Positions 50,776 through 57,837 of a stretch of 63,018 bases of DNA are shown here, in pieces. Below the pieces are notes generated by a model. The model did not search any database, was not told the DNA's origin, and saw only the letters and a list, made by a program, of their open reading frames with translations. The translations under genes were made by a program, and so were the position numbers. How positions within the stretch are numbered: position 1 is the stretch's first letter; the number at the start of each line of letters is the position of its first letter. Origin of the DNA: a virus; the UHGV virus genome UHGV-0170870. One strand, written 5' to 3'.

Positions 50776-51291
50776 ATGCGCAAGCTGATCGGCGCGGCGC
50801 TTGCCGCGCTGTGCCTCTTCGCGACTTCCGCCGAAGCGCGACCCCATCACAGGAGCCATCATGCTCGACATCATACCGTTGCTCGCCACGACGTACGTGT
50901 CGCCCGTTCAACCGATTCCATTTTCAGTCTATTTGGTCACGGCGGCAGTTCGCTCGTTGCTGAAGCTCGCAGCCAGGTAGGCAACGGCGCGATCTACGGC
51001 CGGGCCAATCTCTGGTGCGCTCGCTTCGTCAACTACGTGCTGAGGGCCACCGGCCACACCGGCACGAACTCCGACCTGGCGTTCTCGTTCGCACGCTACG
51101 GCCGCCGCGTATCTGGGCCGCAACCCGGCGCAATCGCCGTGATGGCCCGTAGGGGTGGCGGCCACGTTGGGATCGTCTCGGGCGTAGACCAGGCAGGCAA
51201 CCCGATCCTCGTCTCTGGGAACAACCAGGGCAGGGTCCGCGAGACGGTCTACCCGGCAAGACGCATCGCAATGTACGTGGTTCCAGACTGA
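50776..51291 (+). CDS. secreted CHAP/NlpC-P60-like peptidoglycan hydrolase
   Basis: Signal peptide, His-rich stretch, Cys (LWCARFV) and His (GGHVGIVSG) in CHAP-like arrangement. Confidence 0.5.
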   Translation: MRKLIGAALAALCLFATSAEARPHHRSHHARHHTVARHDVRVARSTDSIFSLFGHGGSSLVAEARSQVGNGAIYGRANLWCARFVNYVLRATGHTGTNSDLAFSFARYGRRVSGPQPGAIAVMARRGGGHVGIVSGVDQAGNPILVSGNNQGRVRETVYPARRIAMYVVPD

Positions 51292-51366: not shown

Positions 51367-51532
51367 TATTTGTTCTACTCCCGCCTAGCTCGGAAACCGT
51401 GTTAGGTTTCGGTCGTGTTTGACACCTAACAGGCCTCCGTAGTATTACGGCCCCTGTGAGAACTTGCATTTCGAGAATAAACAAAGCGCCGCATTTAGGC
51501 GAAGAGACAGGAGACGTATTGTGCGTAGAGGT

Positions 51533-51946
51533 ATGACGGCCGCAGACAAAGAGCGGATAGCGCAGTTCGGCAAGAAGGTCGAACGGCTGATGTTGGGCAA
51601 GGGGTGGAGCGGCGCTGACCTGGCGCGCGAGATGGAGCGGCATGCCCCGAAGGGCGTGACCATCGGCAGGCATATTCCCACGGCCTATATCCGTGGTGAG
51701 AACGAGCCGACCCAACGCAACCTGATGCTGATCGCCAAGGCGCTCGGCGTGAAGCCTGAAGAGCTGATCGCCCCTGCGCCTGGTGAGGGCGGATCGGTCC
51801 CGCAGTTCGCGCAGGCTACCAGCACGCTCGACGGGAAGACGCGCATCGTTGTCGACGCCGAGGTCGACGCCGAGACGGGGTTGCAAATCCTTCAGCTCGT
51901 ACGCAAAGCGCAACAACAGTCGTCGACGAAGCGCTCTGCGTCGTGA
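51533..51946 (+). CDS. XRE-family HTH transcriptional regulator
   Basis: HTH GWSGADLAREMERH...QRNLMLIAKALGV; start at ATG 51533; ORF track starts at 51464. Confidence 0.55.
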   Translation: MTAADKERIAQFGKKVERLMLGKGWSGADLAREMERHAPKGVTIGRHIPTAYIRGENEPTQRNLMLIAKALGVKPEELIAPAPGEGGSVPQFAQATSTLDGKTRIVVDAEVDAETGLQILQLVRKAQQQSSTKRSAS

Positions 51947-52079
51947 AGGGTATTCTAATATTGATGGGGGTTGTGCTGCTCACGGCGTTCGTGGGGATGA
52001 ACGTTGTTGCGGCTGCGGGATGGCTTAGCGGGTGGTTGTTTGGATCGTAGCGCCCATTGATTGATGCACGACGGCAACA

Positions 52080-52110
52080 CGCGGCGGCTTTGAGCCGCCG
52101 TTTCTTTTTC
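52080..52110 (+). terminator. intrinsic terminator after XRE regulator gene
   Basis: CGGCGGC-TTTGA-GCCGCCG followed by TTTCTTTTTCC. Confidence 0.6.
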
Positions 52111-52228
52111 CTGTTAACTACCCGTAATTGTTCTGTGTTGCGAAACATCCGACAAGCTGATTTACATTTCGTCACTTTAGGAGGCGCGCAAATGCACCGA
52201 CCGGAGTTCCAAAAACAAGAATCCTAGT

Positions 52229-52627
52229 GTGGAAAACAGAGTGATGGCCGAAGTAGTTCTTTTCCCTCTCAACGCCAATGATCCCAACGTCGATCCTTCG
52301 CTGATCGACCCACCCTCTTTGCTCGCGGAATCTTCCAAAGCACGCGAGATCATCCTTGAATTAGAACATGAACTGAACGACGCGAAGTGCGTAATTGCGG
52401 ATCAGGCCATCGCACTCACCAAGAACAGCTCCCGACGAAGAGGCGCGAAGCTTCTTCTGGCAGCCATCGCCGCGTTCTTGATCGGGTGGGTTATCGACCC
52501 GCCCGCGCCGATCCACAGGCTGATATATGGCGACAAAGCCATAGCGACGGAACTAAGCTATCGGTTCCCGCACGCCTGCACCTTTACCTGCTCCATCCCT
52601 CCCAAGACCGACGCCCGAGACATCTAA
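52229..52627 (+). CDS. hypothetical membrane-anchored protein
   Basis: GTG start 1 nt after an 11-codon upstream ORF with strong RBS; lower-GC region. Confidence 0.35.
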   Translation: MENRVMAEVVLFPLNANDPNVDPSLIDPPSLLAESSKAREIILELEHELNDAKCVIADQAIALTKNSSRRRGAKLLLAAIAAFLIGWVIDPPAPIHRLIYGDKAIATELSYRFPHACTFTCSIPPKTDARDI

Positions 52628-52821
52628 AAGAACGCGCTGTCGTCGTAGCTGTGGGTAACCACGGCTTGATGCTCATCGCCTTCAGCGAATACGACCGTGT
52701 CGCCCGGCATGACCTCCGCGACGGCACGGTGATCCCAGAACCGATGGACGAAGTCCGGTCGGCCGAACGTCTTAACGGCGTTCAGATATCGGTCGTCCTT
52801 GAAGCGCACGAAGTGCAGCAT
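52624..52821 (-). CDS. hypothetical protein
   Basis: 65-aa ORF, last gene of a short leftward operon. Confidence 0.3.
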   Translation of the reverse strand: MLHFVRFKDDRYLNAVKTFGRPDFVHRFWDHRAVAEVMPGDTVVFAEGDEHQAVVTHSYDDSAFF

Positions 52822-53141
52822 CGGCTTCTTCCCTGCAAGATGACCCGCGTGCGTGCCCCAGGCTGATCCAGCCGCCGCAGTGCTGGCATCTGTCCCTAGA
52901 GCTGCCAGGGCAAGGCCAGCGAGGCTCGCTCGAAGGCGACAGGATGGCCTGCGTGATGTTCTCGACCATTTTCATCGTCCACCCCCGTAGCGCTCCAACC
53001 ATTCCTCGTAGGACATCTCGCGTATGTCCATGATCTGCCGCAGCGCCAGCTCGGCGAACGCCTCGTAGATGCGCTGCTTGGCTTCACGCCCGGCGCGCTC
53101 GTAGGCTTCCAGCTCTTCGAGCTTCCGGATCACGGGGTTGG

Positions 53142-53618
53142 TCACTTCCACTCCGGCCCCTCCGGCCTCGGCATATCCTCGATCTCGTATAGGGCCGCCA
53201 GCTCGCGCTCAGTGAAGCGGTGCTTGGCGCTCGGCCGCGCAACGTACGTCACGCTCTCTTCGACCCCTACGTGGTTCAGGTACTTCCACAGGAGCGTCTT
53301 GTAGTCGACGGCACCCAGGGCCGCCTCGATCTTCCCGGCGAGCGACAGGCAGGCGTTGGCCGACAGGTAGGGCATACCGCGCTCTTGCTTCCAACGCTCG
53401 ACGATCTCGACCGCAACGGCGCGCAGCGCGGGGTCTGAGCTACGTTCCGCCTCAGTCTTGCCGTCGCCGGGCCAACGGTATGCGGCGGCGTGCAGGACAC
53501 GCTTGCGCAAGGTCTCATCGGTCTCGCCGGGCCTGCGCGGCATCGTGCCGACGTGCAAGGCCCACTGGTCGAGGTCCAGCCCGGTAGCAATATTCGCATC
53601 TACTTTCGGTCGTTCCAT
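53142..53618 (-). CDS. hypothetical protein
   Basis: 158-aa ORF; first gene of short leftward operon next to att-like sequence. Confidence 0.45.
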   Translation of the reverse strand: MERPKVDANIATGLDLDQWALHVGTMPRRPGETDETLRKRVLHAAAYRWPGDGKTEAERSSDPALRAVAVEIVERWKQERGMPYLSANACLSLAGKIEAALGAVDYKTLLWKYLNHVGVEESVTYVARPSAKHRFTERELAALYEIEDMPRPEGPEWK

Positions 53619-53798
53619 CTGTCATTCCCCTCGACTCAGCTATATGCCGCTCAGCGGCCGGTAGACGCTCGTCACCTATCATACCTTACAGGCCGAGCAA
53701 AGCGTTTTCTTTGATTTCCGATCCTAAGCCATTGGTGGAATTGTGGTGGGGTCCTCGGGGTCTTTGAGACCAACCCCATTGAAAACATTGAATAAGCT

Positions 53799-53848
53799 TC
53801 GGACTCTTAATCAGCGGGTCCCAGGTTCGAGCCCTGGTGCGCCCACCA
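53799..53848 (+). other. tRNA 3'-portion-like sequence (anticodon-loop-like, T-arm, acceptor 3' strand, CCA); candidate phage attachment core
   Basis: Perfect T-arm CCAGG-TTCGAGC-CCTGG followed by TGCGCCC-A-CCA; no matching 5' acceptor strand or D-arm upstream, so not an intact tRNA gene; lies 40 bp from integrase stop. Confidence 0.45.
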
Positions 53849-53887
53849 ATCAAATCAATAGGTTGGCAGCCCTTCGCGAGATCAAAA

Positions 53888-55018
53888 CTAGAACCTGTCA
53901 GCGGGTCTTTGAACAGTCTTTGACGTAAACGAGCCCGGTTCGTTCCCCTCGACCTTACAAGCTCCTGACGCAAACATGCCAGCGAGCTTCGCCATCGCGC
54001 TCTCCGCCAGGCGCAGATCGCGCCCGAGGTAGTGCCGGTCCAGAATGTGCTCCACGTCCTTCAGGCTGTGGCCGGTGAACGTGGCGATCTCCGGCACTGT
54101 GCATTCGGCGAGCGCCAGGCGCACCACCGCTGAGCCGCGCAGATCGTGGAACGTCAAGTCCTCGTTGATCCCCACGTCGATCAGGGCGTCGCCCCAGGAC
54201 GACCGGAAGCCGTCCTCTGTCCACGGCTTGGCCCGAGAGTTGGTCAGCACCAGCGGCCCGACCCGCTTCATGGAGTCGAGGTAGGTCTTGAGCACGGGGC
54301 TGACAGGGATGGTGACCCGCTTGGCCTTGGCGACCTTGCCGTGGCGTATGGTCTTGCGCTGCGTGAGCCTGATGTAGGTTCCGTCGTAATCCGACCAGCG
54401 CAGGCGGATCAGATCGCCCTCCCGCTGGCCGGTCCAGATCGCGAGCATGAGCGCGTCGACGATCCGCTCCGGGGCTTTCTCGATCATGAGCCCGAGCTGC
54501 GCTTCGGACCATATCTTGTCGAGGCGATCCCCGCCCTCGTAGAGACGGCCGCCGCGCTCGCAGGGATTGACGCTGATGCGTCCGCGATCCTTGGCGACGG
54601 AGAAGATGCGGGCGAGCACGGTCCACGCATAGTCGGCCTTGCGAGGCTTGTCTGCGAACCCATCGCGCCAGGTCTTGAAGACGCCACGCGCGCCCTTCTG
54701 TTCGACGGCCGCAATCGGCATCGTGCCGAACTCTTGCTCGATGAGGGCGATGTAACGGAGGTAGTCTTTCTTCGTCTTGTCGCTGAGCACTCGGTACTCG
54801 GACGACGCTTTGAACTCGACGATGAGCGCGAAGACCGTGGCGTCTGACACGGTCTTCTTGCTCGCTATGTGCTCGTTGAACTCGGTGATGAATGCGGGCG
54901 TGCCGTACTTCGCCTTGATGCGGGGGCCGCCCTTCCACGCGTAGTAGTACCGACGCTTCTTGCCGCCGCCGATCTTGGCGTCGGACCAGAACAGGCCGAA
55001 CAGGTCTACGCGCATCAC
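53888..55018 (-). CDS. int: tyrosine-type site-specific integrase
   Basis: 376 aa; C-terminal catalytic region with HDLRGS and HYLGRD (Tyr); adjacent to tRNA-like att sequence. Confidence 0.85.
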   Translation of the reverse strand: MMRVDLFGLFWSDAKIGGGKKRRYYYAWKGGPRIKAKYGTPAFITEFNEHIASKKTVSDATVFALIVEFKASSEYRVLSDKTKKDYLRYIALIEQEFGTMPIAAVEQKGARGVFKTWRDGFADKPRKADYAWTVLARIFSVAKDRGRISVNPCERGGRLYEGGDRLDKIWSEAQLGLMIEKAPERIVDALMLAIWTGQREGDLIRLRWSDYDGTYIRLTQRKTIRHGKVAKAKRVTIPVSPVLKTYLDSMKRVGPLVLTNSRAKPWTEDGFRSSWGDALIDVGINEDLTFHDLRGSAVVRLALAECTVPEIATFTGHSLKDVEHILDRHYLGRDLRLAESAMAKLAGMFASGACKVEGNEPGSFTSKTVQRPADRF

Positions 55019-55024
55019 GCTCTC

Positions 55025-55285
55025 CTAGCTGACAGCCCTCCGCCTGGAAGCCTGCCAGTCTGCGAGGGGATCGCCCGAGACGGTCTTTTCGGTAGGCAGA
55101 CCGGAAGCCCGGTCCAGATACCAATCAATCGCCTTGCGGTCCCACCGCTGCGTGCCGGGGATCGCCCCCGGCACAATACCCCTCTTGACCCAGGTGTCGA
55201 AGGCGTCGGTGCTGCACCCGCAATAGGCTGCCGCGTGTTCCTTCGTCAGGCCGCGAGGGGCGATCTGGTCGGCGGGTAATATCAC
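55025..55285 (-). CDS. excisionase / AlpA-like HTH DNA-binding protein
   Basis: LTKEHAAAYCGCSTDAFDTWVKRGIVPGAIP...W HTH pattern; likely GTG start at 55285; ORF track extends to 55363. Confidence 0.5.
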   Translation of the reverse strand: MILPADQIAPRGLTKEHAAAYCGCSTDAFDTWVKRGIVPGAIPGTQRWDRKAIDWYLDRASGLPTEKTVSGDPLADWQASRRRAVS

Positions 55286-55290
55286 AGACC

Positions 55291-55596
55291 TTACAGTCTG
55301 TCCACAGGGATCGACGCCACGAACGACTTGGCCCGGCCGTAGAAGTATGCCCGTTGCTTGCACCGTTCGATATGCGAGTCCCGAGAGGGCGACGGCGGTT
55401 CGTTCAGCATATTGTCGACCGCCCTGCCTGCGATGTCCTCGGCGCTCGCCAGCGCGTCGTAGGCGTCGTCGAGAGCCTTCCGGCGCACCGCCACCAGGCG
55501 CAGGCGGCGCTTGGCGTGAAGGTCCCAGGCCACGATGCAGAGCAGGGCGGCCACGCTACCGTAGGTCAGGATGAGAGCCTGATCGTAGAAGTTCAT
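55291..55596 (-). CDS. hypothetical membrane protein
   Basis: Start at ATG 55596 with GGAAAGG RBS; TM helix ALILTYGSVAALLCIVAW; ORF track extends to 55866. Confidence 0.4.
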   Translation of the reverse strand: MNFYDQALILTYGSVAALLCIVAWDLHAKRRLRLVAVRRKALDDAYDALASAEDIAGRAVDNMLNEPPSPSRDSHIERCKQRAYFYGRAKSFVASIPVDRL

Positions 55597-55853
55597 GCCG
55601 CCAGCCTTTCCTGCTCGACCGTACCGGCCCCGCTGCGCGGATTGTTGTCGGGGGTGGGGTAGGCCTTCGCCAGGACGTTGACGCCTCGCACCCATGCGGC
55701 GTTGAGCTGCTTCATGGTCTCGGTGCTCGGGCACTTCACCAGCTCGACGATCAGGCCGCCGATCTCGTCGGCGATGTCCTTCAACATCTTGCGGATCAGG
55801 ATGTCGGGACAGGCCTTCGAGGCTTCCCGCAGTTCGAAGAGAAACGACTTCAT
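55593..55853 (-). CDS. hypothetical protein
   Basis: 86-aa ORF, ATGA overlaps with both neighbours. Confidence 0.4.
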   Translation of the reverse strand: MKSFLFELREASKACPDILIRKMLKDIADEIGGLIVELVKCPSTETMKQLNAAWVRGVNVLAKAYPTPDNNPRSGAGTVEQERLAA

Positions 55854-55993
55854 TGACCAAACCCAATAAGGTTAGCGACGACGATGAGAATCTTGACCGC
55901 GATCATCAGGCCGCATCCGAGGGAGACACCGCCTACGATGCCAATGGCGGTCCCCTTCAGGATCGCCACGGCGCATTGCTTGAAGCTCCGCAT
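55850..55993 (-). CDS. small hydrophobic membrane protein (47 aa)
   Basis: ATG 55993 overlaps upstream stop (TGATG); MRSFKQCAVAILKGTAIGIVGGVSLGCGLMIAVKILIVVANLIGFGQ. Confidence 0.3.
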   Translation of the reverse strand: MRSFKQCAVAILKGTAIGIVGGVSLGCGLMIAVKILIVVANLIGFGQ

Positions 55994-57837
55994 CAGTCTG
56001 TCTCCACGCGTTTGAAGTAGACGCGGTAGACCGAGAAGCGGGTCTTGACGATCACGTCGCCGTGTTGGTCGAAGAACATCTCTTCGATGCGGCTTGTGGT
56101 GATCGGCTCGCCGTCGATGAAGCGACCCTTGGTGTCGCCGTAGACAGGGCCTTTGACGCAAGGCGCATGCGTCGGATCGCTGGCCGTATCGTTGTAGAAG
56201 ACCGCTTCCTTGATAGTGCCGTGGACCTGCATAGGTTCCTTTCCGAGAGGCTTGCGATTCTCCGCCCACACGAACTTGTTCTCCGTGGGGCTGAGCGACT
56301 TCGAGTTCTGATCGCCAAGCGTCTCGGCGACGAGAGCCCACATGGGGTGATGGTGGGAGCCCGCGCCGAGCCTCCACTGCGTCGTGTTCTGATTGACGAA
56401 CTCGCGGAAGAGGCGCAGCGCGGTTGTCGGGTCGATGGCGGCCATCAGAACTTCTTCCCGTTGGCAGCCAGGCGCGCTTCCGGCTTGTGGTCCGCGCGAT
56501 GCTTGTTGTACTCGCGCTTCCGGCTTGTGGTCCGCGCGATGCTTGTTGTACTCGCGCTTCTCGGCGACAGCGGTCCACAGGTCGTAGCCGTGCTGCTTCG
56601 CGTACCCTTCGATCAACGCGATGGCGTGGATCAGCCGCAACGCGCGATCGCGATTCGACATTGCCCGGTTGACGTTCGTCACCATGCGGCTGATGCGGAG
56701 CAACGCCTGACCCTTGTTGGCCGGGAGATCGTCGACAGGGGTCTTGAAGTTGAACGACGACGAGAGCGGAATGCTACCGAGGATGTCCCCGATGCGAATG
56801 ACAGCGTCGGCCAACTCGACTTCCGCCATCTTCCGCTTCGGCAGATGGTCGTCCATCAAGTTCTTGCGCTCACCTTCCATACACTCCGCCAGCTCGGACA
56901 CGACGAGCATGAGCATCTCGCCCATGTTGCGGTTGAGCTTTTCGCCGGTCGCCGGATCGTGCCACCAGTGCGCGTTGGCCGCATGGACTTCCTGCGCCCA
57001 TGCGTTCAGGCTTGCAGGACGGCCCTGCTCGAAGCGACGAAAGTCCCATCCCCCGCTCTCGCCCTTGTTGTAGTCGTCGTTTTCGAGAACAGCGTATCCG
57101 TTGTGGAAGCCGACGATGTTGTACGTCTTGCCGACCGTTAGACGACGGTTACCCTCGATGCAGCGAGCGGGGCCAAGCTTCAGCGCGCCCTTCTTCCGAT
57201 TCCACACGTCAAGCGCCTTCTCGGCCTGTGCGCGCGTCACGAACATCGACGCCGAGGGCGGAACGTCGCCAGCCGTGAACAGGTCATCGTCCTCGTTGAC
57301 ACGCGGGTCGATGTACGGCGTGCCGATCCACGGACGCTGCTCCTGCATGCGGGGCAGGGCGCGCGACGACGGACGCATCTGTTCGCCGTACAGTTCGCGC
57401 GGCGCGAGCGGCTTGGCGTCTGCGGGCAGAACGTCCTCGTTGAAGGACGCCTCGCGGTCGCGCAGCGCGTTCGCGACCTCGGACGGTTCGAGGCGTTGCG
57501 GCAACTCGGCCAGTTTCTTGCGGGCGAACTCCGCGACGGCCGGGAGGTCTTCCGGCTTCACGTCGGTCAGCCGGTTGGCCTTTCCGTGGACCCTGACGGC
57601 CGTGACAACGTGGAGCCTGTCGGGGTACGCGTCGCGCAGCTTCACCAAGAGCGCCTTGACCTCAGAGTGCGTCAAGGTGGGAGGCGCAGGCGGAGCGCCG
57701 GTCTTCGCAAAGGCGATCAGATCGGCACGGAGCTGCGCCGCCATCGCAGTTTCGATAGCCTCGCGCGTCGCACGATAGCTGCCGCCGAAGTCCTTCGGGA
57801 TGAGAAACAGAACAGTGGGGGTCATGGTAGGTGACAA
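55993..57837 (-). CDS. fusion ORF: unknown N-terminal domain + MazG-like NTP pyrophosphohydrolase-like domain, fused in frame to a downstream 150-aa ORF by a 40-bp tandem duplication
   Basis: MazG-like segment EMLMLVVSELAECMEGER...AEVELADAVIRIGDILG; removing one 40-bp repeat unit restores a stop (…HKPEARLAANGKKF*) overlapping ATG of the MAAIDPTT ORF. Confidence 0.5.
   Translation of the reverse strand: MSPTMTPTVLFLIPKDFGGSYRATREAIETAMAAQLRADLIAFAKTGAPPAPPTLTHSEVKALLVKLRDAYPDRLHVVTAVRVHGKANRLTDVKPEDLPAVAEFARKKLAELPQRLEPSEVANALRDREASFNEDVLPADAKPLAPRELYGEQMRPSSRALPRMQEQRPWIGTPYIDPRVNEDDDLFTAGDVPPSASMFVTRAQAEKALDVWNRKKGALKLGPARCIEGNRRLTVGKTYNIVGFHNGYAVLENDDYNKGESGGWDFRRFEQGRPASLNAWAQEVHAANAHWWHDPATGEKLNRNMGEMLMLVVSELAECMEGERKNLMDDHLPKRKMAEVELADAVIRIGDILGSIPLSSSFNFKTPVDDLPANKGQALLRISRMVTNVNRAMSNRDRALRLIHAIALIEGYAKQHGYDLWTAVAEKREYNKHRADHKPEARVQQASRGPQAGSAPGCQREEVLMAAIDPTTALRLFREFVNQNTTQWRLGAGSHHHPMWALVAETLGDQNSKSLSPTENKFVWAENRKPLGKEPMQVHGTIKEAVFYNDTASDPTHAPCVKGPVYGDTKGRFIDGEPITTSRIEEMFFDQHGDVIVKTRFSVYRVYFKRVETD
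56481..56560. repeat. Perfect 40-bp tandem duplication (2 units) inside coding sequence
   Basis: Units 56481-56520 and 56521-56560 are identical: CGGCTTGTGGTCCGCGCGATGCTTGTTGTACTCGCGCTTC; 40 is not a multiple of 3. Confidence 0.9.

Follow-up and report, generated by a model that had tools for sequence, protein, structure and literature searches.

A tRNA-Lys(CUU) gene segment beside a tyrosine integrase as the probable attP core of a Bradyrhizobium temperate phage

A 47-bp segment (positions 53802-53848) of the phage DNA analysed here, a stretch of 63,018 nt called the window in the following, is very probably the attP core of a temperate phage of Bradyrhizobium, recombined by the integrase encoded beside it with the tRNA-Lys(CUU) gene of the host, which serves as attB. 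The identity of the tRNA, the integrase, the circular attP form of the phage, both junctions of the integrated state (attL and attR) and an empty attB-like site are all documented in genome sequences. The features on which this reading is built are collected in Table 1.

Table 1. Features of the candidate attachment site and of its neighbourhood (positions in the window).
Feature	Position	Strand	Remarks
158-aa gene	53142-53618	-	Other side of attP from int
Whole attP (P arm, core, P' arm)	53700-53925		About 225 bp; inferred from the outermost candidate arm sites
Weaker 7/8 copy of the arm repeat, TTCTTTGA	53707-53714	+	P arm
Candidate arm-type Int site, GTCTTTGA	53760-53767	+	Repeat; P arm
attP common core	53802-53848	+	Exactly these 47 bp are the invariant stretch of the four-way attP/attL/attR/attB alignment
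Anticodon-loop-like heptamer CTCTTAA	53804-53810	+	CTT in the anticodon position
T-arm (stem CCAGG, loop TTCGAGC, stem CCTGG)	First stem strand at 53822-53826	+	Perfect T-arm; sequence reading
3' acceptor strand TGCGCCC, discriminator A, CCA	CCA at 53846-53848	+	Sequence reading
Candidate IHF site, AATCAATAGGTTG	53853-53865	+	Perfect match to the E. coli IHF consensus WATCAANNNNTTR, 5 nt after CCA; P' arm
Tandem GTCTTTGA-aca-GTCTTTGA	53905-53923	+	Candidate arm-type sites P'1/P'2; 11-nt spacing; overlaps the non-conserved int 3' end
Tyrosine integrase (int), 375 aa from ATG	53888-55015	-	PF00589, E=1.4e-12; phrog_1 integrase
86-aa HTH protein, candidate excisionase (recombination directionality factor)	55025-55285	-	Directly upstream of int

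The tRNA-like block, first delimited as 53799-53848, reads t-cGGA-CTCTTAA-TCAGC-GGGTC-CCAGG-TTCGAGC-CCTGG-TGCGCCC-A-CCA. Sequence reading confirmed the T-arm, the 3' acceptor strand, the discriminator, the CCA and the upstream heptamer as the initial annotation had described them, and placed the 3' strand of an anticodon stem and a variable loop of 5 nt between the heptamer and the T-arm. Upstream of the fragment, neither the complementary 5' acceptor strand GGGCGCA nor a D-arm could be read, which also agrees with what had been stated. The further claim that no intact tRNA lies here was borne out by gene prediction, since ARAGORN called 0 tRNA or tmRNA genes in the whole 63,018-nt window and Rfam gave nothing at the gathering score, a local search with E ≤ 10 returning noise only and no tRNA or tmRNA match. 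At the fragment itself, neither of the two recognised a complete cloverleaf or a tmRNA fold. The stretch from the anticodon loop to CCA, a 45-mer, occurs a single time in the window and had 0 matches in 100 shuffles.

The source of the block was established by an exact-match scan with this 45-mer, taking one genome per species. At least 120 stretches on contigs of bacterial genomes match it exactly, so the fragment cannot be put down to chance, and among the matches listed nearly all belong to Bradyrhizobium, Xanthobacteraceae or other Alphaproteobacteria. When 127 loci among these listed matches were tested, the complete 5' part of a tRNA was found directly upstream in 81 (GGGCGCATAGCTCAGTTGGTAGAGCAGCTGA followed by the 45-mer), the remaining 46 carrying the 45-mer fragment without the 5' half; ARAGORN, applied to a sample of the loci, called a 76-nt tRNA-Lys with anticodon ctt in most of them. 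On the plus strand, 53802-53848 is identical in 47 of 47 nt to positions 30-76 of this 76-nt tRNA-Lys(CUU) gene and runs from the last 2 nt of the 5' anticodon stem through the anticodon loop and the 3' stem, then the variable loop and the T-arm, to the 3' acceptor strand with the discriminator and CCA. Positions 53799 and 53801 deviate from the gene; the end of the block at 53848 therefore stands as first given, and its start has to be moved from 53799 to 53802, where exact identity begins. Alignment to the host tRNA genes thus turned the guess of Lys(CUU) into an exact match, and the host tRNA 3' end, whose absence had been named as an argument against an attachment site, is present in Bradyrhizobium and its relatives.

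As for the DNA around the block, the window is, judged from its genes and its ends, the complete 63,018-bp genome of a temperate myovirus-like phage in the unintegrated state. Phage genes only are found, on both sides of the fragment: the large terminase, portal, protease, major head (capsid), sheath, tape measure and baseplate genes at 25-46 kb, those for int, a pyrophosphatase and a family A DNA polymerase at 54-61 kb, those for exonuclease, helicase and primase at 0.3-14 kb, and a further one for an SSB-like protein. In three differently permuted public contigs of about 63 kb, the last base of the window (63018) is directly joined to base 1. Moreover, the ENA contig NODE_60, of 63,073 bp, has at its end 55 nt that repeat the start of the window (63,073 - 55 = 63,018), as is typical of a circular assembly with k=55. 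Since the window ends are contiguous elsewhere and overlap by 55 nt in this contig, the window covers a circular (or circularly permuted) genome exactly once and, with phage DNA on both sides, the fragment stands in the attP configuration. The rightward gene block has, towards its attP-proximal end, a CHAP-domain protein, possibly an endolysin (50776-51291, plus), and an HTH_3 repressor-like protein (51521-51946, plus).

In searches of GenBank phage records, the phage has no close relative: positions 52000-56000 were without a megablast match, and TerL gave only tblastn hits below 37% identity, so that no host could be inferred from phage relatives. The GC content of the window is 61.9%, a value typical for Bradyrhizobium and well under those of Streptomyces. 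No paper describing this phage was found, and a study of spontaneously produced Bradyrhizobium phages (PMC10127595) contains nothing on tRNA-Lys integration or on a 63-kb phage.

The integrated state was found through an exact-protein look-up of the 375-aa integrase, which is present in the 7.54-Mb chromosome CM130280.1. At the attL of this chromosome, an intact tRNA-Lys(ctt) (gene call at 5620562-5620637) is followed base for base by the window from 53849 onward (ATCAAATCAATAGGTTGG...) and by int, and the 158-aa gene from the other side of attP is also present, about 63 kb from attL. At attR, with its core at about 5683563-5683609, the left flank of the window, with the phage-type ...TTCGGA and the 45-mer, runs into non-phage DNA, beyond which lie host GGDEF/EAL and DUF2336 genes. 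The record coordinates give a core-to-core distance of 62,972 bp, about one phage length; both junctions predicted by the attachment-site reading thus exist for the same phage. A second lysogen contig is JAFCLJ010000011.1, so that attP-form contigs and integrated copies of the phage are both on record; the assemblies GCA_053474805.1 and GCA_018129505.1 come from lysogenic strains. With a unit 46 bp shorter than that of the window, the prophage in CM130280.1 represents a minor strain variant of the phage.

A four-way alignment was then set up from attP, attL, attR and, as attB, the unoccupied site of Bradyrhizobium tropiciagri L016. It follows the Campbell pattern, attL consisting of attB-left, core and attP-right, and attR of attP-left, core and other DNA. 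The flank 5' of the tRNA is the same in the lysogen CM130280.1 and in B. tropiciagri L016, and this shared flank points to Bradyrhizobium as the host of the phage. After CCA, the attR of the lysogen (L132, 2700-2770) continues with TTGGAAAATTGTTGTTTTCCAAGACCTTCG, unlike the native tRNA terminator of empty sites such as that of L016; the attB seen is therefore that of L016 and not the pre-integration site of the lysogenic strain itself. This post-CCA DNA could belong to the arm of another, earlier element, which would imply repeated use of the tRNA-Lys gene. TTGGAAAATTGTTGTTTTCCAAGACCTTCG resembles the sequence GGAAAAT..TTTCCAA..CTTCGC that follows tRNA-Lys in L006, L048, L072, L090, L106 and L115. 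About 490 nt downstream of attR in L132, a possible decayed remnant of an earlier tRNA-Lys copy was considered and dropped as not significant, since its score of 30 stayed below the 32 reached by the best shuffle. With regard to the target, tRNA-Lys(CUU) is a hotspot at which elements have often integrated in Bradyrhizobium and its relatives (loci L001-L127, the matches listed), many intact copies of the gene being followed by element-like DNA with the IHF consensus instead of the native terminator CCCTTAAGAGATTGGCCCGCAAGGGCTTTTTT.

The 46 loci that hold the 45-mer without an intact tRNA are probably tRNA 3' ends displaced by integration, and they raise the question of whether the fragment in the window could likewise be an attR-type or tandem-island junction in a bacterial chromosome, the window then being host DNA and the intact tRNA lying outside it. 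This is highly improbable, as the window holds phage genes only and its ends are contiguous in other assemblies. Furthermore, int follows the CCA end of the fragment, as it would in attP or attL but not in attR, and the true attR of the phage has different DNA after CCA.

An attP core calls for an integrase, and the neighbouring open reading frame, taken for a tyrosine integrase from the outset, is confirmed as such by its PF00589 and phrog_1 matches and by its best PDB matches, which are lambda Int (1p7d/1z1g/5j0n, E~1e-6). In the PDB alignment, TGQR, the beta-hairpin K and FHDLRG of the integrase align to lambda R212, K235 and H308-R311. The GH...HY motif is conserved in 5 integrase homologues and aligns to lambda H333 and Y342. 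Judged by these alignments, the catalytic R, K, HxxR, H and Y of tyrosine recombinases are conserved. Ahead of the part that aligns with the core-binding domain of lambda Int, the integrase has about 70 conserved residues at its N-terminus; the Pfam arm-binding domain had no match in the integrase. The gene is convergent with the tRNA fragment, its stop codon lying 40 nt after CCA, and an alternative GTG start is found one codon upstream, at 55018. Homologues of 49-57% identity occupy the same convergent position right after an intact tRNA-Lys(CUU) in several Bradyrhizobium/Xanthobacteraceae genomes, and one of them is located in an attP-like viral contig. At its 3' end (53888-53970), the int reading frame of the window extends about 27 codons beyond the end of its homologues, over the tandem GTCTTTGA repeats, with a C-terminal tail that is not conserved.

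The 86-aa HTH protein, whose gene is called in public annotations, matches phrog_25900 (E=7e-7) and phrog_66, 'excisionase and transcriptional regulator' (E=2.4e-5), with a weak match to HTH_17 as well; its role as an excisionase is proposed tentatively from these matches. On the other side, between the late region and attP, three small genes of 158, 59 and 65 aa lie on the minus strand at 52624-53618; the only match found for them is a weak one to an uncharacterised PHROG. After integration, these would be found at the attR end, separated from the int operon. Such a position is typical for 'moron' genes, which are expressed in lysogeny.

Most of attP falls in the 269-nt gap between the 158-aa gene and int, which is without a gene call in public records. 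Two reading frames crossing the att site (53686-53973, minus, and 53743-53928, plus) were rejected as genes, being uncalled in all public annotations examined. The IHF consensus WATCAANNNNTTR, in its E. coli version, has 2 matches in the 63-kb window on both strands taken together, the candidate site AATCAATAGGTTG among them; it is also found within 30 nt after CCA in 25 of the 127 loci tested among the matches listed, its background frequency being 6.5e-6 per nt. As regards the arm repeats, 3 of the 4 plus-strand copies of GTCTTTGA in the window cluster around the core in a stretch of 164 bp. Of 2000 dinucleotide shuffles of 53400-54100, 67 gave an 8-mer with at least 3 copies (3.4%), and the triple GTCTTTGA repeat is by itself only modestly unusual. 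A stronger argument that these repeats may act as arm-type Int sites is their co-variation across relatives: all 10 loci with related integrases have a tandem pair of their own, of 7-11 nt, placed at +45 to +49 after CCA with a spacing of 12 nt (+45 to +57 and 11-12 nt when the pair of the window is counted in), and the sequences of these pairs (GGTTTGA, GTTTACAG, CCGGTTTGTG and others) are alike within an element and different between elements. The order is also shared, a match or near-match to the IHF consensus coming first downstream of CCA and the tandem pair second. Two other repeats of the region, the 8-nt inverted repeat ATTGGTGG/CCACCAAT (53731-53738 / 53843-53850) and the 10-nt repeat TCAGCGGGTC (at 53811 and 53898), were discarded, as both are at about the level expected by chance in 700 nt.

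It might also be thought that the tRNA half, besides being attP, is expressed as a functional tRNA-Lys 3' fragment, for instance a decoy or a substrate for repair when anticodon nucleases attack tRNA-Lys. This is very unlikely, since a scan of 53400-54100 for promoters and terminators gave no promoter-like or terminator-like site, the left edge of the block is fully explained by its role in recombination, and the same architecture is present in many non-phage islands. Less probable still is a pseudo-tRNA, the remains of a tRNA gene of the phage itself that has lost its 5' part and plays no role in recombination: although phages often carry tRNA genes, of which ARAGORN finds none intact in the window, decay would not have kept 47 of 47 nt identical to the host gene, the recombinant junctions of the lysogen coincide exactly with the edges of the block, and related integrases adjoin the same tRNA gene in other genomes. 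The tmRNA gene (ssrA), which the initial annotation had left open as the target, also ends in a T-arm, an acceptor strand and CCA and is known to be used for integration (PMC4383910), but it was excluded, being the least probable of all, by the CTCTTAA anticodon loop and the exact 47-nt match to tRNA-Lys(ctt), with the attL of the lysogen called as tRNA-Lys and no tmRNA called in the window.

With 53802-53848 taken as the attP core, the course of integration can be proposed on the basis of what lambda-type integrases are known to do and of the tDNA sublocation classes of Williams. The lambda-Int-like integrase would recombine the core with its 47-bp counterpart, identical in sequence, in the host tRNA-Lys(CUU) gene, splitting this gene and rebuilding an intact tRNA-Lys at attL, beside int, because the phage carries the 3' part of the tRNA from the anticodon stem to CCA; the displaced 3' part of the host gene would stay at attR, joined to the left arm of the phage. 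As attP and attB are identical across the 47 bp, the junctions do not reveal the crossover point. Nevertheless, the left edge of the identity block falls within the 5' anticodon stem, at position 30 in the window and at positions 27-30 in the elements with related integrases, and for this reason strand exchange is placed in the 7-nt anticodon loop CTCTTAA, the presumed overlap region, with the anticodon-stem halves cGGA and TCAGC as putative core-type Int sites on its two sides. IHF would bend the DNA next to the core, at AATCAATAGGTTG, and the N-terminal domain of Int would bind the GTCTTTGA repeats and bridge the arm sites. Excision may be helped by the 86-aa HTH protein encoded upstream of int.

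The lambda system, with its heterobivalent Int, IHF and Xis and an attP of about 240 bp made up of a core and arm-type sites, is among the closest counterparts. The integrase has lambda Int as its best match among solved structures, with the catalytic residues aligned, and the attP of the phage, about 225 bp long, would resemble that of lambda in its central core, in the predicted IHF-consensus site beside the core in the P' arm, and in the candidate arm repeats on both arms, including the tandem P' pair; a small HTH gene upstream of int is a further likeness. Nevertheless, the phage integrase is only remotely similar to lambda Int (E~1e-6), and its core is a 47-bp segment of a tRNA gene, whereas that of lambda has 15 bp and lies in intergenic DNA between gal and bio.

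Another counterpart is the anticodon-loop sublocation class of Williams (2002, Nucleic Acids Res 30:866), in which attB spans the tRNA gene from the anticodon loop to CCA. The attP of the phage carries the tRNA from the anticodon stem to CCA (positions 30-76), and nothing substantive separates it from the class, the crossover position in the phage being a predicted one. In the same way, the regeneration of the tRNA on integration, with a displaced fragment at the other end of the phage, agrees with the Islander principle, by which integration regenerates the tRNA and the displaced fragment marks the other end of the element (PMC4383910). Among rhizobial phages, the most frequent target of the phiLM21-like prophages of Sinorhizobium meliloti is also tRNA-Lys(CUU), the gene being reconstructed on integration (PMC12429752). 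The phage described here is likewise a rhizobial temperate phage integrating into tRNA-Lys(CUU) with gene reconstruction; the host genus differs (Bradyrhizobium against Sinorhizobium), and the likeness is one of host group and target. The att arrangement is, in short, a textbook one, and represents an ordinary new example of a well-known mechanism in an uncharacterised phage and integrase lineage.

Integration biology gains little beyond a clean, documented set of attP, an attB-like site, attL and attR, together with an integrase lineage in which the attP architecture is conserved and the candidate arm repeats co-vary. In addition, the int-attP pair could become a site-specific integration tool for Bradyrhizobium and those relatives that share the tRNA-Lys(CUU) sequence. 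A practical use of the att site lies in assigning a host to a phage genome that has been deposited under many wrong organisms: the match of attP to tRNA-Lys and the attL and attR junctions reveal the true host of the misfiled genome, which provides a useful contamination flag for assemblies and viromes.

The extent of this misfiling can be seen in public data. The exact integrase was found in 616 collection blocks and 417 contigs, and is filed at NCBI as 'MULTISPECIES ... [Bacteria]' and as 'integrase [Lacticaseibacillus rhamnosus]'; fragments of the integrase cluster are present in E. coli, L. paracasei, Stenotrophomonas and Acinetobacter assemblies and in a eukaryote protein set. Whole attP-form contigs of about 63 kb are found in a 'Streptomyces iakyrus' assembly (L007) and in marine and other metagenomes, the same 63-kb genome with identical proteins being present in hundreds of unrelated public datasets (loci L007, L129-L131, L133 and L135-L139 among them). 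A literature search found no paper describing the phage as a contaminant; Bradyrhizobium itself is a well-known contaminant of sequencing data (PMC9198055). It is thus likely that the free, circular attP-form DNA of the phage is a pervasive sequencing contaminant across phyla, released from spontaneously induced Bradyrhizobium lysogens in water or reagents, an origin made probable by the fact that virions pass sterilising filters. The contig of the 'S. iakyrus' assembly is near-identical to the window, from which it differs by one mismatch and a 42-bp indel; the latter, at about 56475 of the window, falls in the large reading frame with a pyrophosphatase domain (55993-57837, minus) and marks another minor strain variant of the phage.
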